The translations under genes were made by a program, and so were the position numbers. 64,000 nt of DNA from Anaeromyxobacter sp. (GTDB lineage Bacteria > Myxococcota > Myxococcia > Myxococcales > Anaeromyxobacteraceae). The stretch is from the NCBI GenBank assembly GCA_035627135.1, contig DASPMI010000193.1, positions 1,708-65,707 of the forward strand, written 5' to 3'. Every line of letters begins with the position of its first letter. Within the stretch, counting starts at the first letter, position 1. The notes beneath the pieces were generated by a model. The model was not told the origin of the DNA. It ran no database searches and saw only the letters and a list, made by a program, of their open reading frames with translations. Shown in pieces: positions 5,983 to 59,854 of the stretch.

Positions 5983-6020
5983 GTGGAAAACCCTATCACG
6001 TCCGATCGGGGGCGCGGATG

Positions 6021-6794
6021 CTACCGAAGGTAGAGGAGCGGGTCCCTCGGCTTCACCCCCTGGCGGACCTCGAAGTGGAGGTGCGGGCCCGTCGTCCGTC
6101 CCGTCTGGCCGACCTTCGCGACCGGCTCACCCTGCCGCACGCGCGCGCCCTCTCGCACCAGGATCTGCGAGTTGTGCGCGTACACGGTCACGAGGCCCCC
6201 GTCGTGGCGGAGGATGACGACCTTGCCGTAGCCGCTCTGAACGCCGACGAAGACGACCTCGCCATCCGCGGCCGCCGTCACCTGCGTGCCGTGCGGCGCG
6301 GCGATGTCGATGCCGTCGTGGTTGCGCGCCCCGCGCTTCCCGTAGCGGCCGTAGAGCACGCCCTTGAGCGGCCAGGCGAACGGGGCGGCCGAGGGCGCCG
6401 TCCGCACCGCCGCGGGATCGACGCGCGGCGCGGCGGGCGCGGGCGGGGCGGGCGCCGGGTCGGGGGAGCCGCCGAACCCCGGCGCCGGCTCCACGTCGAG
6501 CACCCGCGTCGCCCCGGGGACGAAGAGCTCCTGGCCGACGGCGAGCGTGCGCGGATCCTCGATGCCGTTGGTCCGCAGGAGATCGTCCGGCTCGAGCCCG
6601 TACGCCTTCGCGATCCGGTAGACGTTCTGCCCAGGCTGCACCACGTGGACGACGCCCGCGACGTCGGTGCCCTCGGGGATGGAGAGGGGCGGGCGCGGCG
6701 GCGCGGTCGCGCCGGCGCGCGGGCCGGCGCCGTCGTCCGTGGCGCAGGCGCAGAGCGCGGCCAGGGCGAGCGCGAGCCCGGGCCGGCTGGTCAC
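6021..6794 (-). CDS. nlpD: LysM + M23 peptidase lipoprotein (NlpD-like)
   Basis: Lipobox LCAC, Lys[19 protein letters not shown]23 HDGIDI and HLHFEVR; GTG start overlaps surE stop. Confidence 0.88.
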
Positions 6795-7564
6795 GGGCTC
6801 CGTTCCTTCTCGTACCCCGGGACCGCGAGATCCTGCAGCCGCGCGAGCGCGGGGTCGTGGGTGGGATCGAGGTGGAGCGGGGTCACCGCGGCGAGGCCCG
6901 CCTTCACGGCGTTGCAGTCCGAGCCCGGGATGTCCTCGTTGCGCGCGCCGCCCTCGCCGCCGATCCAGTAGTACTTGCGGCCGCGCGGGTCCGTCTTCTC
7001 CACGACCTCGTTGCCGTACGTGCGCCGGCCGAGCCGCGTGACCGTGAAGCCGCGCACGGGCCCGGGCGGCACGTTCACGTTGAGGAGCAGCGGCGCGGGG
7101 CTCGCGCCGTTCGCGGGCGGCACCATCATGCGCCGCACGAGGGCGGCGGCGAACCGGGCCGCGTGCTCGAAGTCGTGGGGCGGCGACGCGGCCAGCGAGA
7201 TCGCCGCCGCGGGGACGCCGAGGAGCGCGCCCTCGATCGCGGCCGCGACCGTGCCCGAGTAGTGGACGTCGTTCCCGAGGTTCGGGCCGTGGTTGATCCC
7301 CGACACCACGACGTCGGGGCGGGCGTGCTTGAGGACGAGGCAGATGCCCATGTACACGGCGTCGGTGGGCGTCCCGTCCACGGCGTACCACCGCGGCTGC
7401 ACCTCGGCCATCCGGAGCGGCCGGTGCAGCGAGATCGCGTGGGACGACGCCGACTGCTCGCGGTCCGGCGCGACCACCCACACCTCGTCCCCGGAGAAGG
7501 CCGCCGCGAGCGCGCGCAGGCCAGCGGCGTGCACGCCGTCGTCGTTCGAGAGGAGGACTCGCAC
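6791..7564 (-). CDS. surE: 5'/3'-nucleotidase SurE
   Basis: LLSNDDG, DGTPTD, SGINHGPNLG, YSGTVAAA motifs; GTG start at 7564. Confidence 0.96.
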   Translation of the reverse strand: MRVLLSNDDGVHAAGLRALAAAFSGDEVWVVAPDREQSASSHAISLHRPLRMAEVQPRWYAVDGTPTDAVYMGICLVLKHARPDVVVSGINHGPNLGNDVHYSGTVAAAIEGALLGVPAAAISLAASPPHDFEHAARFAAALVRRMMVPPANGASPAPLLLNVNVPPGPVRGFTVTRLGRRTYGNEVVEKTDPRGRKYYWIGGEGGARNEDIPGSDCNAVKAGLAAVTPLHLDPTHDPALARLQDLAVPGYEKERSP

Positions 7565-7650
7565 GGCGCAGAATGTACCAACCGGTGCCGCGTGCCGCCA
7601 GGAAGGCGGTCGAGGAGACGGCAGGCGGCGGCGACCGCGCCGAGCAGGAG

Positions 7651-7684
7651 GCCTGGAGCCCGGAGCCCGAAGCCTGTAGCCTGG
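7651..7684. repeat. Family A half-element
   Basis: Tandem 7-mers gcctggagcccggagcccgaagcctgtagcctgg. Confidence 0.7.
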
Positions 7685-7691
7685 CGACCAC

Positions 7692-9455
7692 GTGACGGGA
7701 CCAGGGGACACGCAGGGCGGCGGGCTGGCCTCGGAGCGGGCCGCGCGCCGCGAGGCGGAGCGGCTGGCGGCCCGGCTCGGGCGGCTGCAGGCCGTCACGG
7801 CCGCCCTGTCGCGCGCCCGCACGCCGGACGAGGTGGCCGAGGCGGCGCTCTCGACGGGCCTGTCCGCGCTCGGAGCGCACTCCGGCGTGCTCCTGGTGCA
7901 GGGCGCCCTCGGGACGGCGCTGGAGGTCCTGCGGGCCAAGGGCATCGACGATCCGGCCCTGCACCGCTGCCTCGCCGCCGGCGGCCGCTCGCCGGCCGAG
8001 GAGGCCTGGAAGTCGGGGGAGCCGCTCTACCTCGCGGAGCCGGACGCGATCGACGCCGACTTCCCGGCGTTCGCGGCGGCGCTCGGGGAGGTGCCCTGGC
8101 GCGCGTTCGCGGCGCTGCCGCTCGCCGCCGAGGGCCGGGTGCTCGGGATGCTCCTCCTCGGGTTCGACGAGGCGCGGCCCTTCGGCGAGGACGAGCGGGC
8201 GCTGGCGGGCGCGGTGGCGGGCCTCTGCGCGCAGGCGCTCGACCGGGCGCGGCTCTTCGTGGCGGAGCGCGTCTCGCGCGCCGAGGCGGTCGCGGCGCAG
8301 CGGCGGCTCGCGTTCCTCGACTCCCTCTCCGCGGTCGTCACCGACACGCTCGATCCGGGCGAGATGGCGACGCGCGTGGTCGCGCTCGCGGTGCCCGCGC
8401 TCGGCGACTGGGCGGCCGTGTTCACCGTGGGAGAAGACGGCGCCGTGGCGCGCGCGGCGGCGTCCGGGCCGGAGGCGCTCGCGGAGCGCGCCGGGTCCCT
8501 CCTCGCCGGCGAGCTGCGCCCGCGGCTCGAGGCCGTGGCGCAGGGCGGGGCGCCGGCCGTGGTCGAGGCCGAGCCAGGCGACCCCCGCGCGCCGCTCGTC
8601 GCGGCGCTCGTCCACCTCGGGGCCCGGGGCCAGGGCTTCGGCGCGCTCGTGGTCGCGTCCGCCGACCCGGTCCAGAGGTACGGCCCGCAGGACGTCGCGC
8701 TCCTCTCCGACGTCGCCCGGCGCACGGCGCTCGGGCTCGAGCACGCGCGCCTGTACCACGCCGCGCAGCTCGCCGCCCAGGCGCGCGAGGACTTCATGCA
8801 GGTCGCCTCGCACGAGCTGCAGGGCCCGGTGGCGAGCTTCCGGCTCGGGGTGGAGCTCCTCGCGCGCGAGCTCGCCCGCGGGAGCCGCGACCGCGTGGAC
8901 GAGCGGCTCCGGGTCCTCATGCGCCAGGCCGAGCGCCTCGGACGGATCTCGAGCGCCCTCCTCGACGTGACCCGCATCACCGCCGGGCGGCTCACGCTGC
9001 TGCGCCACGAGGTGGACCTCGCGGCGCTCGCCCGCGAGGTGGTGGCGCGCCACGAGGACGAGGCGCAGGCCGCCGGCGCCCCGGTCGCGGTGGAGGCCGC
9101 GGGGCCGGTGCCGTGCCAGGCGGACCCGGACCGCGTCGAGCAGGTCGTCTCCAACCTGCTCTCGAACGCGCTCAAGTACGGCCGGGGGTCGCCGGTGCAC
9201 GTGCGCGTCCGGGCCGACGAGGGGTACGCGGTGCTCGAGGTGCAGGACGGCGGCATCGGGATCCCGCCCGAGCAGCAGGCGCGCATCTTCGGGCGGTTCG
9301 AGCGCGCCGTCCCGCCCCGGAGCTACGGGGGCCTGGGGCTCGGGCTCTGGATCGTGCGCAGCTTCGTCGAGGCGCACGGCGGGCAGATCGCCGTCCGGAG
9401 CGCGGCCGGCGAGGGATCGACCTTCACGGTCCGGCTCCCGCTCGCCGGCGGTTGA
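7692..9455 (+). CDS. Sensor histidine kinase with two GAF domains
   Basis: Two GAF-like segments; H-box SHELQGP, NALKY, DGGIG, GLGLGL. Confidence 0.92.
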   Translation: MTGPGDTQGGGLASERAARREAERLAARLGRLQAVTAALSRARTPDEVAEAALSTGLSALGAHSGVLLVQGALGTALEVLRAKGIDDPALHRCLAAGGRSPAEEAWKSGEPLYLAEPDAIDADFPAFAAALGEVPWRAFAALPLAAEGRVLGMLLLGFDEARPFGEDERALAGAVAGLCAQALDRARLFVAERVSRAEAVAAQRRLAFLDSLSAVVTDTLDPGEMATRVVALAVPALGDWAAVFTVGEDGAVARAAASGPEALAERAGSLLAGELRPRLEAVAQGGAPAVVEAEPGDPRAPLVAALVHLGARGQGFGALVVASADPVQRYGPQDVALLSDVARRTALGLEHARLYHAAQLAAQAREDFMQVASHELQGPVASFRLGVELLARELARGSRDRVDERLRVLMRQAERLGRISSALLDVTRITAGRLTLLRHEVDLAALAREVVARHEDEAQAAGAPVAVEAAGPVPCQADPDRVEQVVSNLLSNALKYGRGSPVHVRVRADEGYAVLEVQDGGIGIPPEQQARIFGRFERAVPPRSYGGLGLGLWIVRSFVEAHGGQIAVRSAAGEGSTFTVRLPLAGG

Positions 9456-9467
9456 TACACTCGCGGC

Positions 9468-9944
9468 ATGGCGCTCACGATCCGTTCCCCCGCCTTCGCG
9501 GACGGCGGCGCGATGCCGAAGCCGTTCACCTGCGAGGGTTCCAACCGCTCGCCGCCGCTCGCGTTCGCCGGCGCGCCGGCGGGCGCGAGGAGCCTCGCGC
9601 TCGTCGTCGACGATCCCGACGCCCCCGACCCGGCGGCGCCGAGGACGGTCTTCGTCCACTGGGTGCTGCACGATCTGCCGCCGGGCACGCCGGGGCTCGC
9701 CGAGGCGGTGCGGCCGGAGGATCTCCCGCCGGGCACGCAGCAGGGGACGAACGACTACGGGGCGACCGGCTGGAGAGGTCCGTGCCCACCGATCGGCCGC
9801 CATCGGTACTTCTTCAAGCTGTACGCGCTCGACGCCGCGCTCGGCCCGCTCGCCGATCGCACCAAGGCCGGCCTGCTCGCCGCGATGAAGGGGCATGTGC
9901 TCGCGGAGGCGCAGCTCGTCGGGACCTACGAGAAGAAGGGATAG
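9468..9944 (+). CDS. YbhB/YbcL (PEBP) family protein
   Basis: DDPDAP, FVHWV, GPCPPIGRHRYFFKLYALD. Confidence 0.94.
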   Translation: MALTIRSPAFADGGAMPKPFTCEGSNRSPPLAFAGAPAGARSLALVVDDPDAPDPAAPRTVFVHWVLHDLPPGTPGLAEAVRPEDLPPGTQQGTNDYGATGWRGPCPPIGRHRYFFKLYALDAALGPLADRTKAGLLAAMKGHVLAEAQLVGTYEKKG

Positions 9945-10030
9945 CGCCCGCTCGGCCGCCTGCTGACCAGGCTCCACCGCGAGTGTAGAACGGCCGTGCG
10001 ACCCCGCGCCGGACGTGGGGGCGTGCTTCC

Positions 10031-11485
10031 GTGCCCCACCTCCGCCGCCTCTCGTCCCTGTTCCTGCACAGCCTCGCGCTGCTCGCCGCCGCCCCGGCCG
10101 CGGGGCTGCAGGCCGCCGCGCCGCTCGCCGGCGGCGGCCGCGCGCGCGGTCCGATGAGCCGGCTGCGCCGCTCGCTACGGGCCGCGACGGCCGAGGGGAT
10201 CGCGGCGGAGCTCGTCAACGCCTGCGCCGGCCCGACGATCCTGGCCGGCTGGGCGCTCCACCTCGGCGCGACGCCGCTCGAGGTGGGCGCGCTCGCCGCG
10301 ATCCCGCAGCTCGCGCAGCTCGTGCAGCTCCCGTCGGCGTGGGTGACGGCGGCGTTCGGGCGGCGGCGCGTCGCCATCGCCGCGGTCGCGCTCTCCCGCC
10401 AGGCGCTCCTGCCGCTCGCGGTCGCGCCGCTCCTCGGCGCCGGGGCCGAGGGCGGGCGCGTGCTCCTCCTCGCGGTCTCGGCCGCCTCCGCCGTCCTCGG
10501 GGTGCTCGGCAACAACGCCTGGACCGCGTGGATGGGCGAGCTCGTCCCCGAGGGGCTGCGGGGCCGCTACTTCGGGCGGCGGACCGCGCTCTGCACCTTC
10601 GGCGGCACGATCGCCGGCGTCGGCGTCGCGCGGCTCCTCGACGTCGCGGCCGCGCGCGGCGCGGCGGATCTGGCGCTCGCCGCGATGGCCGGCGCCGCTT
10701 GCCTGTTCGGGGCGGTGACCACGATCCTCATGTGCCGGCAGCACGACGTCGGCGGAAGCGCAGCGCTGCCGGCGCTCGCGGCGACGCTGCGGCCGCTCCA
10801 GGACCGCGGCGCCCGCGCGCTGCTCCGCTACCAGCTCGCCTGGAACGCGTCCGTCGCGGTGGGCGGGAGCTTCTTCACCTTCCACCTGCTCCACAACCTC
10901 CGCGTCGGGTTCACCGTCGTGGCCCTCCACGGCGCGGTCGCGGCCGCGACCCGCATCCTGGCGGCGCCGCTCTGGGGGCGCGCGATCGATCGGTTCGGCG
11001 CGCGCCCGGTGCTCGCCGCCTGCTCGTTCTCCGCGGCGACGCTCCCGCTCGTGTGGCTCGCGACGTCGCCGGACCTCGTGTGGCCGATCTACGTCGACGG
11101 GGTTATCAGCGGCGTCGCCTGGAGCGGCCACGGGCTCGCGAGCTTCGCGCTGCCGCTCTCGGTGGGCCCGCGGCGCGACCGGCCGTTCTACCTCGCGACC
11201 TTCGCGATGGTGGGCGGCGCGGCGTACGCGGCGGCGACCTGGGCGGGCGGGAGCCTCGCCGCGGCGCTCCCGCACGCCGTGGCCACGCTCGGCGCCCGCG
11301 GCGGCCACGGCCTCGAGGCGGTCTTCGCGCTCTCGGCGGCGGGCCGCTTCGCGAGCGCCTTCCTCGCGCTCCGGATCCGCGAGGAGGGCGCGCGCTCGCT
11401 CGGCGAGCTCCACCGCGCCGCGACCGGCGCGGCGCTCGGCGCGCTGGCCGAGGCGCGCGTGCGGGTGCGGCTCGGTCGTCCCTGA
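10031..11485 (+). CDS. MFS transporter (start uncertain)
   Basis: About 12 TM helices; WMGELVP..RGRYFGRR and WGRAIDRFGARPV motifs. Confidence 0.85.
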   Translation: MPHLRRLSSLFLHSLALLAAAPAAGLQAAAPLAGGGRARGPMSRLRRSLRAATAEGIAAELVNACAGPTILAGWALHLGATPLEVGALAAIPQLAQLVQLPSAWVTAAFGRRRVAIAAVALSRQALLPLAVAPLLGAGAEGGRVLLLAVSAASAVLGVLGNNAWTAWMGELVPEGLRGRYFGRRTALCTFGGTIAGVGVARLLDVAAARGAADLALAAMAGAACLFGAVTTILMCRQHDVGGSAALPALAATLRPLQDRGARALLRYQLAWNASVAVGGSFFTFHLLHNLRVGFTVVALHGAVAAATRILAAPLWGRAIDRFGARPVLAACSFSAATLPLVWLATSPDLVWPIYVDGVISGVAWSGHGLASFALPLSVGPRRDRPFYLATFAMVGGAAYAAATWAGGSLAAALPHAVATLGARGGHGLEAVFALSAAGRFASAFLALRIREEGARSLGELHRAATGAALGALAEARVRVRLGRP

Positions 11486-11495
11486 CGCCGGCGGA

Positions 11496-11990
11496 TCACT
11501 GCCGCCAGGTGTCCCACGCGCCCAGGGCGTCGGTCCCGAGCCCCTTCACGATCCGTACGTGCTCGACGTCCATCCACTCGTCCGTGGACATCCGGATGGC
11601 GTCCTCGTGCGTGCCGCCGCGCATGACGAGCCACGGCTCGCGCGCCAGCTCCTCGTCGACGAAGATCGGCAGGCCGAAGAGGCCGAGCGGGGGCTCGGCC
11701 CCTGGCTCGCACGGCTGGAACCGGGGGGCGAACTCGTCCTCGGGGGCGAGATCCGCGCTGATGGCCCCGGTGGCGAGCGCGAGCGCGCCGAGGTCGACCT
11801 TGCGGTCCGCCGCCACCACCGCGAGGACCAGCTCGCCGTCCAGGCTCACCACGACGGTCTTCGCGACCCGCATGCCGCTCACGTGCTCGGCGGCAGCGAG
11901 GCGCTGGGCGGGCACCGCGCGGGCGTGCGCCGTGTGCTCGTACGCGGGGTGATGCTGCTTCAGGTATTGATCGACGCGCTGCGGGATCAT
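11496..11990 (-). CDS. YbaK/ProX-type aminoacyl-tRNA deacylase family protein
   Basis: AKTVV lysine, CEPGAEPPLG, GGTHEDAIRM; ATG 11990 with SD GGAGG. Confidence 0.88.
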   Translation of the reverse strand: MIPQRVDQYLKQHHPAYEHTAHARAVPAQRLAAAEHVSGMRVAKTVVVSLDGELVLAVVAADRKVDLGALALATGAISADLAPEDEFAPRFQPCEPGAEPPLGLFGLPIFVDEELAREPWLVMRGGTHEDAIRMSTDEWMDVEHVRIVKGLGTDALGAWDTWRQ

Positions 11991-12213
11991 GACCGCCTCC
12001 GCAAAGGGGTTCACCCCCGCACTAATCATCGCGGCCGCGATGAGCGAGGGGGTGTCATCACACGGGGGCTGCGCCCCCGCCCCACCCGGCAGAGCCGGCG
12101 GGGCCCCACCCCTGCTACGCGGGGCCCTGTGCCGTGCTCGCCGCTTCGCGGCCGCGCGCGGCTGCTCCGCGGGGGAGGGGCTGGGCCCCTCCCCCAGCTT
12201 CGCTGGGCCTCCT

Positions 12214-13131
12214 CTACCCTTCGACGGGCGGGGTGGAGGCGTCGGCGTTCGGCGGCGCCGCACCCGCGCGGACCGCGCGCAGCGAGTCCCACGAGTACAG
12301 CGCGAGCGCGCCCCAGATGAAGGCGAACGCGACGGCGTGCGCGGTCGTGAACTCCTCGCGGTACACGAGCACCGCGAGCAGGAACTGCAGCGTCGGCGTG
12401 ACGTACTGGAGGAGCCCCACCGTCGAGAGGGGGAGGCTCCGGACGCCGAGGGCGAACCAGACGAGCGGGATGGCGGTGACGGGACCGGCGGCGACGAGGA
12501 GGAGGCTCGTACCTGCGCCCGCGCCGAAGGCGCCCGCGCCGTCCGCCGCGAGGACGCCGACCCACCCCAGCGCGAACGGGGCGAGGAGCGCGGTCTCGGC
12601 GAGCAGCCCGCCGACGGGGTCCACGCCGGCGCGCTTCCGGACGAGGCCGTAGAGGCCGAACGTGAGCGCGAGCGTCAGCGGGAGCCACGGGAGCTCGCCC
12701 CGGTCGACGACCAGCACGCCGACGCCCACGGCCGCGAGGACGATCGCCAGCGTCTGGACCCGCCGCAGCCGCTCGCGCAGGAACACCACGCCGAGGAGCA
12801 CGCTCACGAGCGGGTTCACGTAGTAGCCCAGGCTCGCCTGGAGGACGCGCCCTGCCTGGACCGCCCAGATGTACGTGCCCCAGTTTGCGGCGATGAGCAG
12901 CGCGCTCGCCGCGACGAGGTGGCGCTTGCGGGGACCGAGGGCCTCCCGCGCCGTGGCCCAGCGGCCGAGCAGCGGGGTGGCCACCGAGAGCAGGACCACC
13001 GACCACACCACCCGATGTGCGAGGACCTCGAGCGCGGGGACGTGCGCGAGCGCCTTGAAGTAGATCGGGAAGAACCCCCAGAAGCCGTAGGCGAGCAGGG
13101 CGGAACCGAGGCCGCGGGAGCGCGAGGACAC
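12214..13131 (-). CDS. rarD: EamA family transporter RarD
   Basis: WGFFPIY, EVLAHRVVWS, ASLGYYVNPL, GLLQYVTP; GTG 13131 preferred over ATG 13143. Confidence 0.93.
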   Translation of the reverse strand: MSSRSRGLGSALLAYGFWGFFPIYFKALAHVPALEVLAHRVVWSVVLLSVATPLLGRWATAREALGPRKRHLVAASALLIAANWGTYIWAVQAGRVLQASLGYYVNPLVSVLLGVVFLRERLRRVQTLAIVLAAVGVGVLVVDRGELPWLPLTLALTFGLYGLVRKRAGVDPVGGLLAETALLAPFALGWVGVLAADGAGAFGAGAGTSLLLVAAGPVTAIPLVWFALGVRSLPLSTVGLLQYVTPTLQFLLAVLVYREEFTTAHAVAFAFIWGALALYSWDSLRAVRAGAAPPNADASTPPVEG

Positions 13132-13167
13132 GGGGCGCACCATACCCCTGCGAGGCGGTTGCGCAAT

Positions 13168-13244
13168 GGGGCGTCGGGCCTCAGGCCTCGGGCCTCGGGC
13201 GGGCGAGTCCTTCCTGAGGCCTGAAGCCCGAAGCCCGAGGCCCC
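13168..13244. repeat. Family A REP-like element
   Basis: (ggcctcr)n left arm, (cctgagg/cctgaag/cccgaag)n right arm. Confidence 0.8.
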
Positions 13245-13283
13245 ACGGGAACGCGCGGTCTATTCTCGAGTGGCGAGGATCCC

Positions 13284-13736
13284 ATGCCCAAGGCGGACTG
13301 GAAGACCATCTGCTGCCCGATCGACTTCTCGGACGCGTCGCGCGCCGCCATGGAGGTGGCGGCCGATCTCGCGGCCCGGACCGGCGCGTCGCTGACGCTG
13401 CTCCACGCCTACCCCGTACCCGGCTACACGTTCCCGGACGGCTCGGTCGTCGCGAGCGCGCGCATGCTCCAGGAGCTCGCCGATCAGTCGGCGAAGCACC
13501 TCGCCGAGTGGAAGAGCCAGGCCGAGGCGCTCGGTGTACGGACCGTGAACGCCGAGACGGTGGTGGGCGAGCCCGCGGCGGAGATCGTCGCCTGGGCGCG
13601 CGAGCGGAAGACCGACCTGCTCGTGCTCGGGACGCACGGGCGGACCGGCCTCGAGCACGCGCTCATGGGATCGGTGGCGGAGAAGGTGGTCCGGCGGGCG
13701 CGGTGCCCGGTGCTGACGGTCCATCCCGGCTCGTGA
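13284..13736 (+). CDS. Universal stress protein
   Basis: ICCPIDFSDAS, DLLVLGTHGRTG, GSVAEKVVRRARCPVLTV. Confidence 0.95.
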   Translation: MPKADWKTICCPIDFSDASRAAMEVAADLAARTGASLTLLHAYPVPGYTFPDGSVVASARMLQELADQSAKHLAEWKSQAEALGVRTVNAETVVGEPAAEIVAWARERKTDLLVLGTHGRTGLEHALMGSVAEKVVRRARCPVLTVHPGS

Positions 13737-14226
13737 ACCCGCGCGTCGGGTCCGGCGCCGAGGCCGGTCCGTCCCCGAACCGCGCGGCGATCCGCGCCCG
13801 CCGGTGATCGAAGATCCGCCCGAGCGCGCGGCGCACGAACAGCGCGTGCGCGAGCGCTCCGAGCGGGCCGAGCGGGAGCTCGTACTCGACCCGGTCCGAG
13901 ACGCGCGTCCCGCCGGGCGCGTCCTCGAACACGTGGGTGTGGCGCCACAGCCGGTACGGGCCCGAGAGCTGGACGTCGACGAAGCGTACGCCGGGCTCCC
14001 AGGCCTCGAACCGCGTGCGCCAGCGGAACCCGACGCCGTACAGGGAGAGCCTGTAGTCGATGAGCGCGCCGGGGGCCATGGGGATGGGCCCGGGAGTGGT
14101 GACCCGGAAGCGCAGGAACTGCGGGGTGATCGCCTCGAGGTTGAACGCGTCGCCGAAGAACGCGAAGACCTCGGCCCGCGGGGCCGGGACGAGCTGCGAA
14201 CGTTCGAGGACGTGGCGGCGCGCCAT
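13663..14226 (-). CDS. SRPBCC family protein
   Basis: NLEAITP, FVDVQLSGPYRLWRHTHVF motifs; 3' end overlaps the USP gene. Confidence 0.88.
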   Translation of the reverse strand: MARRHVLERSQLVPAPRAEVFAFFGDAFNLEAITPQFLRFRVTTPGPIPMAPGALIDYRLSLYGVGFRWRTRFEAWEPGVRFVDVQLSGPYRLWRHTHVFEDAPGGTRVSDRVEYELPLGPLGALAHALFVRRALGRIFDHRRARIAARFGDGPASAPDPTRGFTSRDGPSAPGTAPAGPPSPPPIP

Positions 14227-14365
14227 CGCGGCGATGTAGCGGGGGAGGGGGCCGCGCGCCGCGCGGTTTGGCTGGCGGTGAGGCCCGTTCGAGGGTAGGA
14301 AGCGGCAGCCGGCGCGGCCGGGACGCGTTTGCGCGGCGCGGGCCGCGCATCGGGGAGGAGACGAC

Positions 14366-15352
14366 ATGGCGAACCTCACGACGAGCTTCATGGGCCTCAC
14401 CCTGCCGACGCCGCTCGTCCTCGGGAGCTCGGCGCTCTCGAACCGGCTCGAGAACCTCCAGGCCGCCGAGAGCCACGGCGCGGGCGCGGTGGTGCTCCGG
14501 TCGCTGTTCGAGGAGCAGATCGAGGCCGCCGACAGCGCGCTGCAGGACGAGCTCTCGCGCGGCGCCGAGGCGAGCGCCGAGGCCCGCACGTTCTTCCCGC
14601 CGCAGCGGGTCGGGCCGCACGACTACCTCGAGTTCCTCTCGAACGCGAAGAAGGCGCTCCGGATCCCGGTGATCGCGAGCCTCAACTGCGTCGCCCCGGG
14701 GAGCTGGACCGAGTACGCGAAGGAGATCGAGTCCGCCGGCGCCGACGCGCTCGAGGTGAACGTCTACGCCGTCGAGGCCGATCCGGCCCGGAGCGGCGCC
14801 GACGTCGAGAAGCGCTACCTCGAGGCCGTCGCCGAGGTGAAGGGCTCGGTCCGGATCCCGGTCGCGGTGAAGCTCTCGCCGTACTTCAGCTCGCTCGCGA
14901 ACTTCGTCTCGAAGCTCGACAGCCTCGGCGTGAACGGGCTCGTCCTCTTCAACCGGTTCCTCCAGCCCGACATCTCGCTCGACCGGATGGCGGCGACGCC
15001 GAGCATGACGCTGTCGTCGCCCGCCGAGGCGCTGGTGCCGCTCCGCTGGATCGGGATCCTCCACGGGCGCACCCGCGCGCAGCTCGCGGCGTCGACCGGC
15101 ATCTACGACGCCGCGGGCGTCGTGAAGCAGCTTCTCGCCGGCGCGCAGGTCGTGCAGCTCGCGTCGGCCCTCGTCAAGAACGGCATCCCGCACCTCGGCA
15201 AGGTGGCGGCGGGCCTGGACGACTGGCTGGAGAGCCGCGGCGCCGACGGCGTGGACGAGATCCGCGGCTCCCTCTCGCAGCGGGAGATCCAGGACCCGGC
15301 GACGTTCGAGCGCGCGCAGTACGTGCACTTGATCCTGAGCCAGAATATCTGA
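14366..15352 (+). CDS. Dihydroorotate dehydrogenase-like flavoprotein
   Basis: GAGAVVLRSLFEEQI, PVAVKLSPYF, LFNRFLQPDI, FERAQY. Confidence 0.88.
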   Translation: MANLTTSFMGLTLPTPLVLGSSALSNRLENLQAAESHGAGAVVLRSLFEEQIEAADSALQDELSRGAEASAEARTFFPPQRVGPHDYLEFLSNAKKALRIPVIASLNCVAPGSWTEYAKEIESAGADALEVNVYAVEADPARSGADVEKRYLEAVAEVKGSVRIPVAVKLSPYFSSLANFVSKLDSLGVNGLVLFNRFLQPDISLDRMAATPSMTLSSPAEALVPLRWIGILHGRTRAQLAASTGIYDAAGVVKQLLAGAQVVQLASALVKNGIPHLGKVAAGLDDWLESRGADGVDEIRGSLSQREIQDPATFERAQYVHLILSQNI

Positions 15353-15368
15353 CCTCGGTCGAGGTCCG

Positions 15369-15433
15369 AGGCTCCAGGCTTCAGGCTTCAGGAAAGACTT
15401 CGGCGTCGTTCCTGTAGCCCGTAGCCTGTAGCC
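15369..15433. repeat. Family A REP-like element
   Basis: ggctccaggcttcaggcttcagg ... cctgtagcccgtagcctgtagcc. Confidence 0.85.
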
Positions 15434-15479
15434 GCCCCCCGCGTTTCTGTTCTCAGACGGCGCCGCGGCTGCTAGACCA

Positions 15480-16166
15480 TTGCCTCCAGCCATGGAACGG
15501 CCGCGCCCCGCCCTGCCCGAGGAGCCTGCTCCGCCGCAGCCCGGCGCGCAGCGGCACGGCCCGCGCCACTCGCTCGGCCAGAGCTTCGGCTGGGCGTGGG
15601 CGGGCCTCGCGGGCGCGGCGGTGCGCGAGCGCAACATGCGGATCCACCTCGCGCTCGGGATCCTCGCGAGCGCCGCGGCGAGCCTCCTCCCCGTCGCCGG
15701 CGGCGAGCGGGCGCTGCTCCTCCTGGCGGTCGCGCTCGTGGTCGCCGGCGAGGCGGCCAACTCCGCGCTCGAGGCCGTCGTGGATCTCGTCTCGCCCCAC
15801 TGGAACGTGCGCGCGCGCGTGGCGAAGGACGCGGCGGCGGGCGCCGTGCTCGCGCTCGCCGGCGGGAGCGTGGTCATCCTCGTCGCGATCGCCCTGCCCG
15901 CGCTCCACCGCGTCGACGCGTGGGCGAGGCTCGGCGCGGGCGCCGCCGGCGCGGTCCTGGCCGCGGGCGCGGCGTGGTTCCTTCCGCGGCACGGCCGCCG
16001 GCCGCCGGCCGTGGACCACGCCGTCCTCGCGGTGGGGCTCTCCGGGCTCGCGCTCGTCGCCTGGGCCGCCGACGGGATCGCGGGCGTCGCCGCTGCCGCG
16101 CTCCTGCTCGCGGTCGCGGCCGGGGGCGCGGTGCGGCGGCGGAGGGACAGCGAGCGGGGGACCTGA
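15480..16166 (+). CDS. Diacylglycerol/undecaprenol kinase (DgkA family) with extra C-terminal TM helices
   Basis: ERNMRIH, EAANSALEAVVDL, AKDAAAGAVL; start may be ATG 15492. Confidence 0.85.
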   Translation: MPPAMERPRPALPEEPAPPQPGAQRHGPRHSLGQSFGWAWAGLAGAAVRERNMRIHLALGILASAAASLLPVAGGERALLLLAVALVVAGEAANSALEAVVDLVSPHWNVRARVAKDAAAGAVLALAGGSVVILVAIALPALHRVDAWARLGAGAAGAVLAAGAAWFLPRHGRRPPAVDHAVLAVGLSGLALVAWAADGIAGVAAAALLLAVAAGGAVRRRRDSERGT

Positions 16167-16205
16167 AGCGCCCCGAACGGGCGTTTCGGGCCCGTGGGGG
16201 AAGGT

Positions 16206-16220
16206 TTAGACGCAGTCTAA
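16206..16220. promoter_or_regulatory. Palindromic operator TTAGAC-GCA-GTCTAA (PerR/Fur-like candidate)
   Basis: Perfect 6-3-6 inverted repeat about 32 nt upstream of ATG 16253. Confidence 0.6.
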
Positions 16221-16252
16221 GCGCGGGACGAACACCCAGGAGCCTCTCCTCC

Positions 16253-17683: not shown

Positions 17684-18240
17684 GGCACGTGCGCCGCGAG
17701 GAGATCCTGCCCCTGGACGTCTACGAGCGGTCCCGCGACGAGATCCGCCGCGGCATCATGGAGGCGAAGCGGCTCCGGCGCGTGACCGCCGGTGGCGTGC
17801 TCACGTTCCTGTTCGAGAACACCGCCACGATGCGCTACCAGGTCCAGGAGATGTGCCGGGCCGAAGGGCTCCGGCGCGAGGAGGAGATCGCCCACGAGCT
17901 CGAGACGTACAACGAGCTCCTGGGTGGGAAGGGCGAGCTCGGCGTCTCGCTCCTCATCGAGGAGGCCGACCCCGCGGAGCGCGATCGGAAGCTGCGGGCG
18001 TGGCTCGACCTGCCCCGTCATCTGTACGTGAAGCTCGAGGACGGCGAGAAGGTCCGGCCCCGGTACGACGAGCGGCAGGTCGGCGAGGACCGCCTCTCCT
18101 CGGTGCAGTACCTCAAGTTCGACGTCCGCGGGCGCGTGCCCGTGGCGGTGGGCTCCGACCTGCCCGCGCTCTCCGTGGAGAGTCCCCTGGATCCGGCACA
18201 GCGCGAGGCGCTCGCGCAGGATCTCCGATCGGACTCCTGA
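17680..18240 (+). CDS. DUF3501 family protein
   Basis: FLFENTATMRYQVQEM, ELETYNELL, RLSSVQYLKF; GTGA overlap with upstream gene. Confidence 0.9.
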   Translation: MRHVRREEILPLDVYERSRDEIRRGIMEAKRLRRVTAGGVLTFLFENTATMRYQVQEMCRAEGLRREEEIAHELETYNELLGGKGELGVSLLIEEADPAERDRKLRAWLDLPRHLYVKLEDGEKVRPRYDERQVGEDRLSSVQYLKFDVRGRVPVAVGSDLPALSVESPLDPAQREALAQDLRSDS

Positions 18241-18512
18241 CCACCCGGCCTTCGCGGCGCTCGCGCCGAGGGGTGAACGGGGAGGTTCACCGGCAGCCTA
18301 TGTGGGGCGAACCGGTCCGTTCGCCCGTCGCTATCGTGCGGAAGCGCAGGGCGATCTGGCGCCAGGAGGCGAGCAGGCGTCGGCCCGCCGCTGGACCCGC
18401 GTCCGCTGCGGTGGCAGGATGCGCACATCGACTCAGTCTTGCAGCCGCAAGACCACCGGGCAGGGCGGCGGGGGGTTCCTGTCCCCGGCGTGCGTGTCGC
18501 GCGGAGGCGCGA

Positions 18513-19367: not shown

Positions 19368-19373
19368 TTCCCC

Positions 19374-19450
19374 CAGGGCTGCAGGCGCCGGGGCTTCAGG
19401 AACCGCGCCCGGGGCTCTTCCCGTAGGCTGCAGCCCGTAGCCCGTAGCCT
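19374..19450. repeat. Family A REP-like element
   Basis: gggctgcagg..ggcttcagg ... cccgtaggctgcagcccgtagcccgtagcc. Confidence 0.78.
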
Positions 19451-19491
19451 CCCTGTAGACGCTCGTCCGCGCCAGCGGTACACCGAGGCCC

Positions 19492-20334: not shown

Positions 20335-20402
20335 GGGGCGCCGAGGGGACGGCCGCCGCTGGGGCGGGGCGGCACGCCCCGTCGCCGATGTAGAATGCCC
20401 CG

Positions 20403-46120: not shown

Positions 46121-46205
46121 GGGCTACAGGCTACAGGCTCCAGGCTTCAGGGGGCGCGCCTCTCAGGGGGCCACCGCGCCCGGGTGAAGCCCGAAGCCCG
46201 AAGCC
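46121..46205. repeat. Family A REP-like element
   Basis: gggctacaggctacaggctccaggcttcagg ... tgaagcccgaagcccgaagcc. Confidence 0.85.
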
Positions 46206-47670: not shown

Positions 47671-47768
47671 AGGCTTCAGACTTCAGGTTGGCGGCCCGCT
47701 CGATGGCTCCAGCAGGACCTCGATGCGCCGCGTCCTTCCTGAAGCCCGAAGCCCGAAGCCTGAGGCCC
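47671..47768. repeat. Family A REP-like element
   Basis: ggcttcagacttcagg ... cctgaagcccgaagcccgaagcctgaggcc. Confidence 0.85.
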
Positions 47769-47781
47769 GCTTCCCGCGCGC

Positions 47782-50478: not shown

Positions 50479-50664
50479 GGCGCAGTTCTAACCCGGGAAG
50501 GGGCCGACGTGGCGCGTCGGCGGGCATTTGACACCCCTCGGCCCAGCCTTACCTAGAGAACGAGGTCGCGAGCCGAGGGCAACCACCCCCGGAGCGCGGC
50601 CCCGACCGAAACCCACCAACGGCTTTCAGCGCGCGGCCCATGTCCGCGCGAGGAGGAGACGACC

Positions 50665-54200: not shown

Positions 54201-54374
54201 GTCGAGGATCACGCCCCGGAGCGCGAGCCCGTGCGCCTTCCCCCCTCGGCCGTCCGCGCCGAACACGCCCGCGAGCGGGCCGCCGCCCGCCGCCCGCAGC
54301 CACACGGCGTACGCCAGCCCGGCGAGCACCGCCAGGCCGGCGACCCCGAGGAAGGCAACCCGCGCTCCCCGCAT
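51222..54374 (-). CDS. Carboxypeptidase-regulatory-like (repeated beta-sandwich) membrane-anchored protein
   Basis: N-terminal TM; about ten G.V.D..G.PV.GA.V...TD.EGRF repeats. Confidence 0.85.
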   Translation of the reverse strand: MRGARVAFLGVAGLAVLAGLAYAVWLRAAGGGPLAGVFGADGRGGKAHGLALRGVILDGDVPVRGATILVTSDEDGDSFSAARCPNEEDRSIFDCPCAAVPDLAGWRIADGRGEAALVAHATTSDDGTFLVTGLAPGRYAVWAEAGDLVAMTYDVEAGERVELALAPAVWYGGVVRDEEGVPVEDAQVAAVHRAHSRFFQARTDEDGGFLVGPLPEGPYAIFAWSEGRIPDVDLSPSGDMELKLAAAARVEGRVERDGTPVPGAEVRAEVACSPTVTTTDAEGRFVLERLLPARTAVAAFSGDEGGLATVDLTAEDREGLVIALAPGGAVAGEVRDDAGAPVAGVRVALEAELVAMAAVTDDEGRFRLSGLPADAYAVWLFPPPGFVRPGPRAIRVEQGGEVRASYRLLRAARIAGVVEDEDGVPIADAVITGRRIRDRGPLPADWDARGAVETRSDRAGAFALEHAAAGAWRLSVAADGFVPATFDAQAPEELAVTLLRGGALDVEVVDESGAPVPGALLSAVALQPPGGEPFRKEAAADASGWHRFDGLPPGRYRVVAQRLARAKDGVGYFRTVTAEETVEGPVTTALRLRFELGMSIAGKVVEEGTGRPLAGVEVAAVDEVREAAIGPSDGPPSRAGGLAITDAEGRFEIPHLRPRRHRLSWALEDHAAAEGGRWARPMETGLVLTMRRTAQLTGRVTGHDGSPLDDFTVSGRPFRAAGGTFALPIQRAGPQTLRVEADGHEPLVKEITLDDRRDRDVGELRLSRGRTVRISVLVAATAQPVRSAEVQVGTAAPHRPWAITALHARGRTGRDGTVALGGLPATPLDVLVVADGLAPALVPLGGGATDLAVRLDAGGRIEGIVRNAADEPVRNVPVTAAGAFSRESLTDRDGRFTVEGLPPGDYSVALEDGVTDGNAGLSQRPAAVKAGGTARVEFRESTGATLALRVPPPEDCGAWLVPGAVTAGGAADLLQVRQRILTPASHEDRVLLYRGLAPGPYTAACVADATAPGETARVVSLRRIDVAGSDVEVTLPAPTVAVHEARAAEK

Positions 54375-54425
54375 GGAGGCAGCGTACCAAACTCGGCACC
54401 AGCCTTGCGCGCGTTCGAGACAAGC

Positions 54426-54459: not shown

Positions 54460-54476
54460 GCTCGTCTCGATGGCCG

Positions 54477-54507
54477 GCCCGAGGCCTGAGGCCCGAAGCC
54501 TGAGGCC
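54477..54507. repeat. Family A half-element
   Basis: gcccgaggcctgaggcccgaagcctgaggcc. Confidence 0.72.
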
Positions 54508-54510
54508 TTT

Positions 54511-56805
<2,295 letters not shown>

Positions 56806-56822: not shown

Positions 56823-57149
56823 CTACTCCGGCTCGACCGTCACGAGGAGCGGGAACTCCGCCTCCCGCGCGAGGTCCAAAGTCTTCTTCGTCTTCGTCTC
56901 CGCGATCTCCCACGGATAGATACCGGCGACGCCCACGCCGCGCATGTGAACGTGGAGCATGATGCGGTGGGCCGTCTCCGGGTCGTGGTTGAAGACCGCG
57001 ATCAGGACCTGCTCGACGAACTCCTGCGTCGTGTAGTCGTCGTTGTGGAAGAGGACCTTGTAGAGGGGAGGCCGCTTCGTCTCCCGCTCCTGGCGTGTCT
57101 TCGGGACGGCGGTCGCCGTGTCGCCCCCGGGGCGGGGTTGCTCGGCCAT
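56823..57149 (-). CDS. clpS: Clp protease adaptor ClpS
   Basis: YKVLFHNDDYTTQEFV, MLHVH, FPL. Confidence 0.97.
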   Translation of the reverse strand: MAEQPRPGGDTATAVPKTRQERETKRPPLYKVLFHNDDYTTQEFVEQVLIAVFNHDPETAHRIMLHVHMRGVGVAGIYPWEIAETKTKKTLDLAREAEFPLLVTVEPE

Positions 57150-57258
57150 GGCTCGGACCATTGTAAACGGGCGGCGGCGGAAACGCCCCGCCGTCGAGCG
57201 GAGCGAGGGAGCGGGTGGCCGGCGCGGAATCCGCCAGGGGCGCCCGGAGTTCCCGGCC

Positions 57259-59121
57259 TCACCGCAGGCGGCCGAGCAGCGCCCGCGTCGCCCCGTCTCC
57301 CGGGTCGAGGCGCAGCACGTCCTCGAGCTGCGCGCGCGCCTCGGCGGTGCGCCCCGCGCGGAGGAGCAGCTGCGCGAGCTCGCGGGCGAGCACCGCCTGC
57401 TCCGGCCGGATCCGGCGCGCCCGTTCGTACGCCCGGATCGCGCCCGGGAGATCCTGCGCCTGCGCGAGCATCCGCCCGAGGAACCGGGGCGGGTCCATCT
57501 CGTCGGGCGCGAGGCGGATCGCGTGCTCGAACGCGGCGCGCCCCGCCTCGAACTCGCCGAGCTCGCCGCGCGCGATGCCGAGGTTCACCCACGCGCGCCA
57601 GTAGCGGGGATCCACGGCGAGGACGACCTCCAGCCGCTCGATGGCCTTCCGCGGCTGGCCCATCGTCGTGTAGGCGACCGCGAGGTTGTTGTTGGGCGTG
57701 ACCTGGAGGGGCGCCTTGCGCACCTCCGACTCCCAGAACCGGACGGTGGTGGACCAGTCCTCGGTCCGCACGGCGGTGCGCGCCCAGAGGAGCGGGACCG
57801 CGAGGGCCGCGAACCCCGCGAGCACGAGCGACGCCCCGGCGCGGGCGCGCCCCTCCTCGCGCGGCGCGAAGGCGGACGAGAGGGCGCCGCCCAGGACCGC
57901 CCCCGCCGCGAGGCAGAACCCGACCGACGGCAGGTAGAGGAGCCGCTCCGCGAGGAGCACGCCGACGGGGACGAAGACGTGGAGGACGGGGAGGAGCGCG
58001 ACGAAGATCCAGATCACGCCGACCGCGACGAGCGGCGCGCGGCGCAGGAGGAGGACGCCGGCGGCGAGGACCAGGGCCCAGGCCGCCGTCGCGATCGCGA
58101 AGCCCGCGGTGGGGGCGGTGATCGTCGGGATCCGCGCGGCGTAGGCGAAGTCGCCGCCGAGGAACGCGGGCAGGGCGAGGATGCGCAGGTACTCCGCGAG
58201 CACCCGGCTCATGGTCATGAGCACGTGGGCCCGCGGCGTGCCGAGCGGGAACCAGAGCGCCACGGGCTTCACGCCCAGCGAGGGCCACCAGCTGTTCCCC
58301 GGCTCGTGCAGCGCGGCGGTGTGCCCGACGAGGTAGGGGAGGAAGGCGAGGCCGAGCGCGCACGCGACGCTCGCCGCGCGGCCGAGCGCGCGTCGCGCCT
58401 CGGGCCCCCGGAGGCCCGGCCGCGCGGGGAGGCCCGCCGCCGCGGGCAGCGCGTACGCGATGAGGAGGTAGAGCGGCGGGATCGTCACCGCGACCTCCTT
58501 CGAGAGGATGCCCAGCATGAGCACGAAGGCGGCGGCGGCGATGCCGCGCGCGCGCCGGGCGCGGAGCGCGAGGAGCAGGGCCCAGAGGGCGAAGACCGCG
58601 GAGAGCGGCTCGGTCCGGCCGAAGATCGTGACGACCGACTCGGCGTGCGAGGGGTGGACCGCGAACAGGAGGCCGGCGGCGAGCGCGATCCAGGCGGCGC
58701 GCGCGGGCGCGACGACGGCGCGGGCGAGGTGCCCGGCGAGCGCCGCGACGAGCAGGCTGGCGATCGCGTGCAGCGCGATGTTCACGAGGTGGTAGCCGAG
58801 CACCGCCTTCTGGTGGACGGCGTAGTTGAGCGCGAACGAGAGCGTGGTGAGCGGCCGGTACGGGCCGCGGACCGACGGCGGCCCCGCGTAGCCGTAGAGC
58901 TCCTGGAAGATGCGCGGGACGTTCTCGAGCTTCCAGACGAGCGGGTTGTTGATGGCCGTCCAGCCGTCGTCGAGGATCGGCGGGTTGTGGATCGAGCCGA
59001 GGTAGGGGAGGACCGCGGCGAGCGTCACCGCGTAGACGAGCAGCCAGCGCGGCGGCGAGACGGGGGGGAGCGCGGGTTCGGCCGGGGTGGACGGTGCGGG
59101 CGAGGGGAGCATCGGCGTCAT
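57259..59121 (-). CDS. TMTC-like GT-C glycosyltransferase with C-terminal TPRs
   Basis: ILDD, YRPLTTLSF, YHLVN, VHPSHAESV, SKE, AERLLYLPS, TPR tail; ATGA overlap with aat. Confidence 0.82.
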   Translation of the reverse strand: MTPMLPSPAPSTPAEPALPPVSPPRWLLVYAVTLAAVLPYLGSIHNPPILDDGWTAINNPLVWKLENVPRIFQELYGYAGPPSVRGPYRPLTTLSFALNYAVHQKAVLGYHLVNIALHAIASLLVAALAGHLARAVVAPARAAWIALAAGLLFAVHPSHAESVVTIFGRTEPLSAVFALWALLLALRARRARGIAAAAFVLMLGILSKEVAVTIPPLYLLIAYALPAAAGLPARPGLRGPEARRALGRAASVACALGLAFLPYLVGHTAALHEPGNSWWPSLGVKPVALWFPLGTPRAHVLMTMSRVLAEYLRILALPAFLGGDFAYAARIPTITAPTAGFAIATAAWALVLAAGVLLLRRAPLVAVGVIWIFVALLPVLHVFVPVGVLLAERLLYLPSVGFCLAAGAVLGGALSSAFAPREEGRARAGASLVLAGFAALAVPLLWARTAVRTEDWSTTVRFWESEVRKAPLQVTPNNNLAVAYTTMGQPRKAIERLEVVLAVDPRYWRAWVNLGIARGELGEFEAGRAAFEHAIRLAPDEMDPPRFLGRMLAQAQDLPGAIRAYERARRIRPEQAVLARELAQLLLRAGRTAEARAQLEDVLRLDPGDGATRALLGRLR

Positions 59122-59819
59122 GAGGTCGGGGCGGGCTCCTCGAGCGACCAGCGCCCGCGACGGGTCGGGGCGCGGAGCGCGCGGGCGAGCCGGTGCAGGA
59201 ACGCGGGGCGGGAGACCTCGTGCGCGCCGAACCGGACGAGGTGCTCGGTCCGCACCTGGCAATCGACGAGGCTCACGCCGCGCGCCGCGAGCCAGGCGAC
59301 GCTCCGGACGAAGGCGACCTTCGAGGCGTCGGGCCGGTCCGCGAACATGGACTCCCCGAAGAAGGCCGTCCCGAGCGACACCCCGTACAGGCCCCCCGCG
59401 AGCTCGGGGCCCTCCCAGGCCTCGAACGAGTGCGCGAACCCGAGGTCGTGGAGGCGGACGTAGGCGTCGCGCATCTCGGGGGTGATCCACGTCCCGCGCT
59501 GCCCGGGGCGGGCCCGGGAGGCGCACCGGTCGATCACCTCCGCGAACGCCTGGTCCGCCGTCACGCGGTACCGCTCCCTGCGGATCGTCCGCTGCAGGGA
59601 GCGGGGGACGTGGAGACGGGCCGGCTCGAGCACGAGCCGCGGGTCCGGCGACCACCAAAGAATGGGGCTGTCGTCGCCGTACCAGGGGAAGATCCCGGAG
59701 GCGTACGCGACGAGCAGCCGCTCCGGCGAGAGATCGCCCCCGACGGCGAGGAGCCCGTCCGGCTCGGCCCGCGCCGGGTCCGGGAAGGCGGGCTCGCGGG
59801 GCAACCGGTAGATGGGCAC
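59118..59819 (-). CDS. aat: Leucyl/phenylalanyl-tRNA--protein transferase
   Basis: GGDLSPERL, GIFPWY, WWSPDPR, GGLYGV, GESMF, DCQ. Confidence 0.97.
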   Translation of the reverse strand: MPIYRLPREPAFPDPARAEPDGLLAVGGDLSPERLLVAYASGIFPWYGDDSPILWWSPDPRLVLEPARLHVPRSLQRTIRRERYRVTADQAFAEVIDRCASRARPGQRGTWITPEMRDAYVRLHDLGFAHSFEAWEGPELAGGLYGVSLGTAFFGESMFADRPDASKVAFVRSVAWLAARGVSLVDCQVRTEHLVRFGAHEVSRPAFLHRLARALRAPTRRGRWSLEEPAPTS

Positions 59820-59854
59820 GGGGGGAATATACGGTGCTGCCGGGGGAGAGGGCT

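Follow-up and report, generated by a model that had tools for sequence, protein, structure and literature searches.

Promoter-type TANNNT hexamers directly ahead of start codons in a Myxococcota genome: a conserved signal of a minority of genes, typical of leaderless genes

Introduction

The stretch of DNA analysed here, called the window throughout, covers 64,000 nucleotides (nt) of contig DASPMI010000193.1 (positions 1,708 to 65,707 of the forward strand, assembly GCA_035627135.1), and its genes include apt, surE, rarD, sucA, clpS and aat, each preceded within a few nucleotides of its ATG or GTG by a hexamer of the form TANNNT. A preliminary description of the window had read such hexamers, at nine genes without a Shine-Dalgarno (SD) sequence, as the mark of leaderless mRNAs. 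We find that this geometry is a genuine, genome-wide and conserved promoter-at-start-codon signal, typical of leaderless genes. As judged from sequence, it probably reflects promoter -10 elements placed at the start codon that would give leaderless or near-leaderless transcripts in a minority of genes.

Genomes and counting

The host is a Myxococcota bacterium, very likely an uncultured Anaeromyxobacter. Its metagenome-assembled genome (MAG) comprises 5.12 Mb in 206 contigs with 73.8% G+C and a completeness of 97%, and the window itself has 74-75% G+C throughout. The best relative of the DEAD-box helicase in the window is found in a 'Myxococcales bacterium' MAG (76% identity), followed by one in Vulgatibacter (58%). 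Genome-wide, 4005 genes were called with a simple codon-usage model, and TANNNT was counted by its distance to every in-frame ATG or GTG within the 5' zone of each gene; genes with the hexamer at short distance are here termed TA-led. An SD sequence was defined as GGAG, GAGG or AGGA, and the window genes were scanned over the 20 nt before the start. No 16S gene was found in the MAG assembly, and the anti-SD sequence is thus unreadable, so that SD use was judged from the spacing peak of GGAG/GAGG. At least 18 species of the same genus were available for comparison, including the complete genome G006 (5,013,479 bp), and syntenic blocks were taken from five congeners (G001, G006, G008, G009 and G014). 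Rfam and tRNA scans of the window gave no matches, and hence no known leader RNAs bear on the question.

Results

Hexamers ahead of start codons in the window

TANNNT is rare in the window, with 50 copies on both strands in 64 kb. The nine sites singled out in the preliminary description were all located as it had said, 6-7 nt before an ATG or GTG, and its claim that they lack SD sequences also holds, none of the nine having GGAG, GAGG or AGGA within 20 nt 5' of the start. All nine hexamers precede long open reading frames with a G+C content at third codon positions of at least 0.92. Two further cases, sucA and clpS, had been overlooked. In the following list the coordinates run over the hexamer and the start codon, and the distance is that between them.

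5980 to 5995, minus strand: apt, 175 amino acids; TAGGGT (5990-5995), 7 nt, ATG 5982
7562 to 7577, minus strand: surE, 257 amino acids, in a divergent intergenic region; TACATT (7572-7577) directly after TGG, 7 nt, GTG 7564
9456 to 9470, plus strand: ybhB-like gene; TACACT (9456-9461), abutting the TGA of the upstream histidine-kinase gene, 6 nt, ATG 9468
13129 to 13144, minus strand: rarD, 305 amino acids; TATGGT (13139-13144), 7 nt, GTG 13131
20391 to 20405, plus strand: J-domain-like protein, 642 amino acids; TAGAAT (20391-20396), 6 nt, ATG 20403
28276 to 28293, plus strand: sucA (2-oxoglutarate dehydrogenase E1); TAAATA (9 nt) overlapping TATCGT (5 nt), ATG 28291
42176 to 42190, minus strand: GH5 cellulase-family protein, 568 amino acids; TACGAT (42185-42190), 6 nt, ATG 42178
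43913 to 43927, minus strand: DEAD-box RNA helicase, 545 amino acids; TAGATT (43922-43927), 6 nt, GTG 43915
54372 to 54386, minus strand: CarboxypepD_reg-repeat protein, 1050 amino acids; TACGCT (54381-54386), 6 nt, ATG 54374
57147 to 57165, minus strand: clpS, 108 amino acids; TACAAT, 10 nt, ATG 57149, with a predicted leader of about 0-4 nt
59817 to 59831, minus strand: aat (Leu/Phe-tRNA-protein transferase), 233 amino acids; TATATT (59826-59831), 6 nt, GTG 59819

Longer spacings also occur in the window: ATG 2106 is preceded by TACGCT at 11 nt and ATG 40415 by TAAGTT at 12 nt.

The preliminary description had considered hexamers at such a fixed spacing unlikely to arise by chance, and the positions bear this out: under a conservative model, the finding that at least 10 of the 50 hexamers lie 5-7 nt before one of the approximately 52 real starts has a P of about 8e-11. 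Taken alone, the excess of the bare pattern TANNNT-N6-RTG is modest, with 6 observed against 1.99 expected from dinucleotide shuffles, one of 100 shuffles reaching 6. Stronger evidence than these window counts comes from the positional peak in the whole genome and from conservation in related genomes, both described below.

The start codons in question agree well with the family models. The product of GTG 7564 aligns one to one with the SurE equivalog models from residue 1, Apt residues 5-175 align to positions 6-176 of 176 (NCBIfam apt models), residue 6 of the YbhB-like protein to model position 4 (NCBIfam), RarD residues 7-287 to 9-291, SucA residues 13-921 to 16-917 of 919, and residue 2-4 of the DEAD-box helicase to 1-4. 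Since the TAG of their hexamers is an in-frame stop, neither the J-domain-like protein nor the DEAD-box helicase can extend N-terminally. For rarD, the start GTG 13131 that had been deduced from the hexamer keeps its position in congeners, and the alternative ATG 13143 is not conserved. The ATG 57149 of clpS is supported because the ATG within the hexamer is out of frame in congeners. Thus the earlier proposal that the geometry fixes several start sites stands for surE, rarD and aat, whose starts agree with family models, with congener positions or with both, and extends to clpS.

A genome-wide peak before start codons

Genome-wide enrichment at this position, which had been named as a check on the proposal, is clear at 6-10 nt. 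TANNNT occurs 147, 88, 75, 88 and 44 times at 6, 7, 8, 9 and 10 nt before an in-frame ATG or GTG (Poisson P of the peak down to 1e-74). At 13-24 nt the background level is about 20, at 0-5 nt the counts are 4-18, and the rate at internal in-frame ATG and GTG controls is about 50-fold lower. The excess amounts to about 340 of the 4005 genes (8.5%). The control patterns AANNNT, TTNNNT and TNANNT, the reverse complement, shifted patterns and others gave no peak, and TANNNC, TANNNA and TANNNG gave peaks of about 2-fold at 6-7 nt.

The subset of genes with unambiguous starts is biased towards nearby in-frame TAG or TAA stops, and the case consequently rests on the split between TA[CT]NNT, TA[AG]NNT and TGANNT. 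TA[CT]NNT, which is never a stop, peaks with 69, 42, 40, 39 and 24 occurrences over a background of about 11, and TGANNT shows no peak before starts genome-wide. The secondary peak, at 9 nt, might have marked a class of its own, but this was rejected, as it vanishes in TA[CT]NNT.

The onset of coding potential falls on the TA-led starts (median offset 0), and the ratio of ATG to GTG is 141:93 among the 234 genes with a spacing of 6-7 nt. GTG is over-represented at TA-led starts: it makes up 64 of the 147 with a spacing of 6 nt, compared with 215 of the 813 ATG/GTG starts in genes lacking the motif (P = 5e-5). By crude operon calls, 318 of 2311 likely operon heads (13.8%) are TANNNT-led versus 126 of 1446 closely following genes on the same strand (8.7%).

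Promoter architecture around the hexamer

The surroundings of the hexamer resemble those of a promoter. A G stands two bases before it, at -14, in 64% of the 234 genes with 6-7 nt spacing, and the same genes favour T, T and G at positions -23 to -21 counted from the hexamer. Among 453 genes with spacings of 5-10 nt, TTG was found 10, 28 and 18 times at spacers of 16, 17 and 18 base pairs (bp), against about 1.3 at other spacers. This is the -35/-10 geometry of sigma-70.

The stretch between hexamer and start is G/C-rich, and C immediately precedes the start codon in about two thirds of the genes, as it does in 67% of the genes with unambiguous starts whatever their class. RNA polymerase prefers a pyrimidine-purine pair at -1/+1, and a C next to the A or G of the start codon provides such a pair. 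In E. coli the start site is chosen 7-10 nt after the -10 element, a window matched by the spacing range of 6-9 nt.

Conservation among congeners and in related families

In an unrelated 400-kb sample of G006, genes that are TA-led there have orthologues that are TANNNT-led here in 12 of 16 cases, compared with 1 of 82 for non-TA-led control genes (Fisher P = 3e-11; test restricted to orthologues aligned at the N-terminus). The peak was also replicated in G006 itself, with 56 occurrences against 8.3 expected for the 422 genes of 480 kb. Three other families of the order gave weaker peaks, with an excess per gene of 0.06, 0.07 and 0.11 compared with 0.09-0.11 in the genus, the cross-family samples being small and the kin genomes non-independent.

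The individual genes of the window follow this trend to different degrees. surE carries TA[CG]A[TC]T after TGG, 6-9 nt before the aligned GTG or ATG, in all 18 congeners (75-96% protein identity) within an otherwise variable intergenic region; outside the genus the hexamer is kept in 1 of 9 genomes. In apt, five of six genomes, this one included, have TANNNT at a distance of 7-9 nt from the ATG, the TA being kept and the GG not. aat shows TACAAT, TAGACT or TAGATT 6-7 nt before the aligned GTG or ATG in all four congeners that have an orthologue, and rarD has its GTG at the aligned position together with TAGGAT (7 nt), TACCCT (5 nt) or TAGAAG (6 nt). clpS is preceded by TAGAAT 8 nt before the aligned ATG, for the J-domain gene G008 also has TAGAAT at a distance of 6 nt from the ATG, and in the nearest relative of the DEAD-box helicase (L001, 76% identity) TACAAG precedes the ATG by 6 nt. 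In sucA the element shared by congeners is TTAA(A/G)..A, located 9-10 nt ahead of the ATG, and TATCGT is not conserved. No syntenic orthologue of the GH5 gene was found in the five congener blocks.

The ybhB-like gene is the least secure of the nine. TANNNT is kept in G008 only (TATCGT, 6 nt), while G001, G006, G014 and G009 have an SD of the GGAGG type; its leaderless status is uncertain because the start lies 12 nt past the kinase stop and the gene is SD-led in four of the five congeners. The mode of initiation turns over within the genus: the ybhB-like gene is TA-led here and in G008 and SD-led elsewhere, and the oxidoreductase gene at 5378, described below, shows the reverse in G001.

Elements without the final T

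Five near-matches ending in C had also been noticed in the window and rated weaker than the full hexamers. All five were found:

5376 to 5390, minus strand: NAD-binding oxidoreductase, 235 amino acids; TACATC, 6 nt, ATG 5378
14224 to 14238, minus strand: SRPBCC/polyketide-cyclase-like protein, 187 amino acids; TACATC, 6 nt, ATG 14226
19479 to 19494, plus strand: lgt; TACACC, 7 nt, ATG 19492
22788 to 22825, plus strand: NAD-dependent epimerase; TTGCGT (-35), 17 bp, TAAACC, 6 nt, GTG 22823
50476 to 50490, minus strand: HrpB-type helicase, 898 amino acids; TAGAAC, 6 nt, GTG 50478

In the four genes that were compared with orthologues (all but that at 14226), they are conserved at this spacing, either as such or as a full TANNNT. 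Orthologues of the oxidoreductase have TAAGGT or TAGGTT 7 nt before the ATG in G008, G006 and G014, and G001 is SD-led. lgt has GGTA.A.. at the identical 7-nt spacing in 4 of 4 congeners, with a final base that is never T in the five genomes. The epimerase orthologues of G008, G006 and G014 combine TTGCGT or TTGTCG, a 17-bp spacer and TA.ACC with 6 nt to the GTG, and those of hrpB have TAGAAC, TAGAAG, TACTTG or TACAAC 6-7 nt before the GTG. The start at 14226 is supported by a Pfam model, which aligns residues 5-150 to positions 2-141 of 142, and that at 22823 by the alignment of epimerase residues 3-228 to Pfam positions 1-240. Thus -10-like hexamers of the form TA...C/A/G are held at fixed spacing across congeners at 19479-19494, 22811-22825 and 50476-50490.

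Genome-wide, when the TA dinucleotide alone is counted, the excess 12-17 nt ahead of start codons is about 640, corresponding to about 16% of genes. Comparison with the TANNNT excess of about 340 suggests that the final T is missing from about half of the elements.

Shine-Dalgarno use

GGAG/GAGG tetramers peak genome-wide at spacers of 5-8, with about 600 over a background of about 200. Among genes chosen without regard to the motif, an SD-like tetramer is present in 46%, and TANNNT at 5-10 nt in 14%. The two signals are largely separate, since 121 of 137 TA-led genes with unambiguous starts are without GGAG, GAGG or AGGA, and only 36 of 234 have an SD-like triplet inside the hexamer. SD-led initiation is the larger class and TA-led initiation a minority mode. 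The earlier wording, in which leaderless translation was pervasive and a major mode, was therefore overstated: TANNNT accounts for about 8.5% of genes (among likely operon heads, for about 14%), any TA accounts for about 16% of genes, and the SD peak is far stronger.

In the operons of the window, the first gene is TA-led and the genes inside follow the SD rule: clpA (ATG 56805), after clpS, has GGAG at spacer 5, and sucB (ATG 31156), after sucA, has AGGA.

Neighbouring genes and heptamer-repeat arrays

aat (59118-59819), clpS (56823-57149) and clpA (54511-56805) form an N-degron pathway trio on the minus strand between 54511 and 59819. A gene for a 620-amino-acid protein (ATG 59121), which overlaps the aat stop, lies between aat and clpS.

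The intergenic regions also contain arrays of 3-5 tandem heptamers with a unit of approximately GCCYGNR (GCCTGTA, GCCCGAA, GCCTGGA), for which there was no Rfam match. In the window they are located as follows:

3144-3222, 3503-3521, 7651-7684, 13169-13243, 15369-15433, 19420-19449, 46122-46205, 47741-47769 and 54476-54508: heptamer-repeat arrays
7677 to 7694, plus strand: GAF histidine kinase; TAGCCT, 9 nt, GTG 7692

The arrays are often inverted pairs 15-30 nt apart, which would form a long imperfect hairpin. Genome-wide, 108 strict arrays were counted, 90 of them outside called genes, against 45 in reversed-sequence controls. TAGCCT units of the arrays create TANNNT hexamers able to mimic -10 boxes, and the case of GTG 7692 is ambiguous because its TAGCCT is the final unit of such an array.

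Discussion

We propose that the hexamers would act as -10 elements (T-12, A-11 and usually T-7) of housekeeping promoters of the sigma-70 type, often with a G at -14 and, 17±1 bp upstream, a weak -35 element of the TTG type. With a -10 box this near the coding sequence, and initiation taking place 7-10 nt past it, the first nucleotide transcribed by RNA polymerase would be the A or G of the ATG or GTG, or would lie no more than about 0-4 nt from it. The distance from hexamer to start is so short that the resulting mRNA would have no room for an SD, and translation would presumably proceed by direct binding of the ribosome to the 5'-terminal start codon. About 9% of genes would be expressed in this way if TANNNT is counted; inclusion of -10 variants without T-7 would raise this to as much as about 16%, and the share would be somewhat higher among operon-first genes. 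Most other genes, including those within the same operons such as clpA and sucB, would use SD sites.

Several points weigh against this proposal. Both the position of transcription start and the leaderless translation are read from DNA. A scan of 4500-24000 for E. coli-consensus promoters returned 0 promoters; that consensus is too strict for the host, and weak -35 elements together with the GC-rich middle of the -10 would account for the blank. The motif is present before 126 of the 1446 closely following genes, ybhB among them, and for these a longer operon mRNA may serve as the template of translation. The spacing is broad (6-10 nt), so that part of the class may carry leaders of 1-4 nt. 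The codon-usage finder behind the gene calls and 5' zones is a crude one of our own making, and the percentages are approximate. Contigs ending at the transcript start were sought by exact-protein match; none was found for apt, and for ybhB there was only an ordinary contig with upstream DNA, which is uninformative.

If the hexamers were real -10 boxes but the wrong ATG or GTG had been chosen, the true start codons would lie further downstream and the mRNAs would have ordinary leaders. In-frame alternatives a few codons downstream do exist for apt (ATG 5970), for the 54374 gene (GTG 54329) and for the helicase at 50478 (50427), and spurious in-frame GTGs are plentiful in high-GC genomes. However, surE matches its family models one to one, apt, ybhB, rarD, the DEAD-box helicase and sucA do so within 1-3 residues, the start codon positions are conserved in orthologues, and TA-led starts lie at the onset of coding. 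Moreover, random downstream starts would not yield the sharp 6-nt peak seen relative to these codons, and we regard such systematic misplacement as rather improbable. It is likewise improbable, if slightly less so, that the hexamer acts in the RNA of a leadered transcript, as a non-SD, A/U-rich landing site for the ribosome or S1 or through termination-reinitiation coupling. The occurrence of the motif before closely following genes (8.7% of non-heads versus 13.8% of heads), with ybhB starting 12 nt past the kinase stop, would fit such a role, and AT-rich islands in a 74% GC genome would reduce local RNA structure. Yet the informative positions are exactly T-12, A-11 and T-7 of sigma-70 -10 boxes with a GC-rich, uninformative middle, the G at -14 and the TTG 16-18 bp upstream have no role in an RNA signal, reverse-complement and shifted patterns are without a peak, and the 6 nt between hexamer and start are G/C-rich rather than A/U-rich.

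A functionless peak could in principle also arise from composition or selection, as the rare TA would concentrate just outside open reading frames in the form of stop codons. An in-frame TAG or TAA indeed opens about half of the hexamers found at 6 and 9 nt, the subset with unambiguous starts is stop-biased, and the bare pattern is only 3-fold above shuffles in the window. Against this, TA[CT]NNT peaks equally and TGANNT does not, the out-of-frame distances of 7, 8 and 10 nt are enriched 2-4-fold, and the distances of 0 and 3 nt, at which stop codons should have their strongest effect, are not enriched. The TTG at 17 bp and the conservation in orthologues (12 of 16 versus 1 of 82) are further evidence against an artefact, which is already largely refuted and has in our view very little probability left. 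Promoter -10 elements at the start codon, with leaderless or near-leaderless transcripts in a minority of genes, thus remain the reading that we consider likely.

Such a mode of expression is known and had already been predicted computationally in delta-proteobacteria, and no concept is changed. The gain is for annotation: gene finders that expect an SD misplace starts in genomes of this kind, and the -10 geometry pins those of surE, rarD, aat, the DEAD-box helicase, clpS and others. Our literature search found no report tying Anaeromyxobacter to leaderless genes, nor a genome-wide experimental leaderless fraction for any myxobacterium. More tentatively, and with somewhat more doubt than conviction, Myxococcota might constitute a third major leaderless lineage beside Actinobacteria and Deinococcus-Thermus, Anaeromyxobacter being the strongest sampled, with many -10 boxes lacking T-7 and with genes that flip between leaderless and SD modes among congeners. 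If so, close to one in four transcription units would be leaderless once the T-7-less boxes of the lgt, epimerase and hrpB type are counted.

The comparison with known systems places the window in a familiar context. Leaderless transcriptomes have reportedly been mapped in Mycobacterium (by Cortes in 2013 and Shell in 2015). As in Deinococcus and Mycobacterium, the pattern here has a TANNNT -10 at -12 to -7, a weak or absent -35 and an ATG or GTG as first triplet, and GTG is well represented (93 of 234), as in mycobacteria. The preliminary description had related the geometry to leaderless genes of Actinobacteria and Deinococcus; the likeness is real, but that frame is incomplete, since the host belongs to Myxococcota. 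In Deinococcus and Mycobacterium the mode was shown by mapping of transcription start sites and by reporter assays, whereas here it is predicted from DNA, in another phylum, with a lower fraction and a spacing tail to 10 nt. In Deinococcus deserti 167 of 262 genes are leaderless as mapped experimentally (cited in PMC6028130).

The geometry itself is an accepted signature of leaderless genes (PMC3160421, PMC6028130). Group C of GeneMarkS-2 includes Actinobacteria, Deinococcus-Thermus and 104 of 1854 Proteobacteria (Lomsadze et al. 2018, PMC6028130). In this group a Pribnow box lies 6-8 nt from the start of operon-first genes, internal genes have an SD at the same distance, and 25-50% of operons are leaderless, with 40% in M. 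tuberculosis (PMC6028130). clpS-clpA and sucA-sucB show exactly this split between first and internal genes. Compared with the 25-50% of operons in group C, the share here is about 14% of likely heads by TANNNT and perhaps about 25% with a relaxed -10, by our own estimate and not by GeneMarkS-2. Within the same phylum, the leaderless pexR mRNA proposed in myxobacteria in 2025 (PMC12754779) is a single-gene precedent with a leader of at most 5 nt and a housekeeping promoter; it is not genome-wide and is unlinked to the genes of the window.

The closest parallel is the TA-led class found computationally in 8 of 33 delta-proteobacterial genomes, with a mean of 15.8% and a range of 5.7-20.6% of genes (Zheng et al. 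2011, PMC3160421). These eight genomes may be those of Myxococcales. Both sets share a TANNNT with an uninformative middle in high-GC genomes, approximately 10-12 nt before the start, and the coexistence of SD-led genes, and the share estimated here (about 9-16%) falls inside the reported range. Beyond that study, and in a different, uncultured species, the present analysis adds for this group the -35/-14 architecture, the conservation in orthologues and the conserved -10 variants without T-7. It thereby provides a well-documented example of the geometry outside Actinobacteria and Deinococcus, with both promoter architecture and orthologue conservation.

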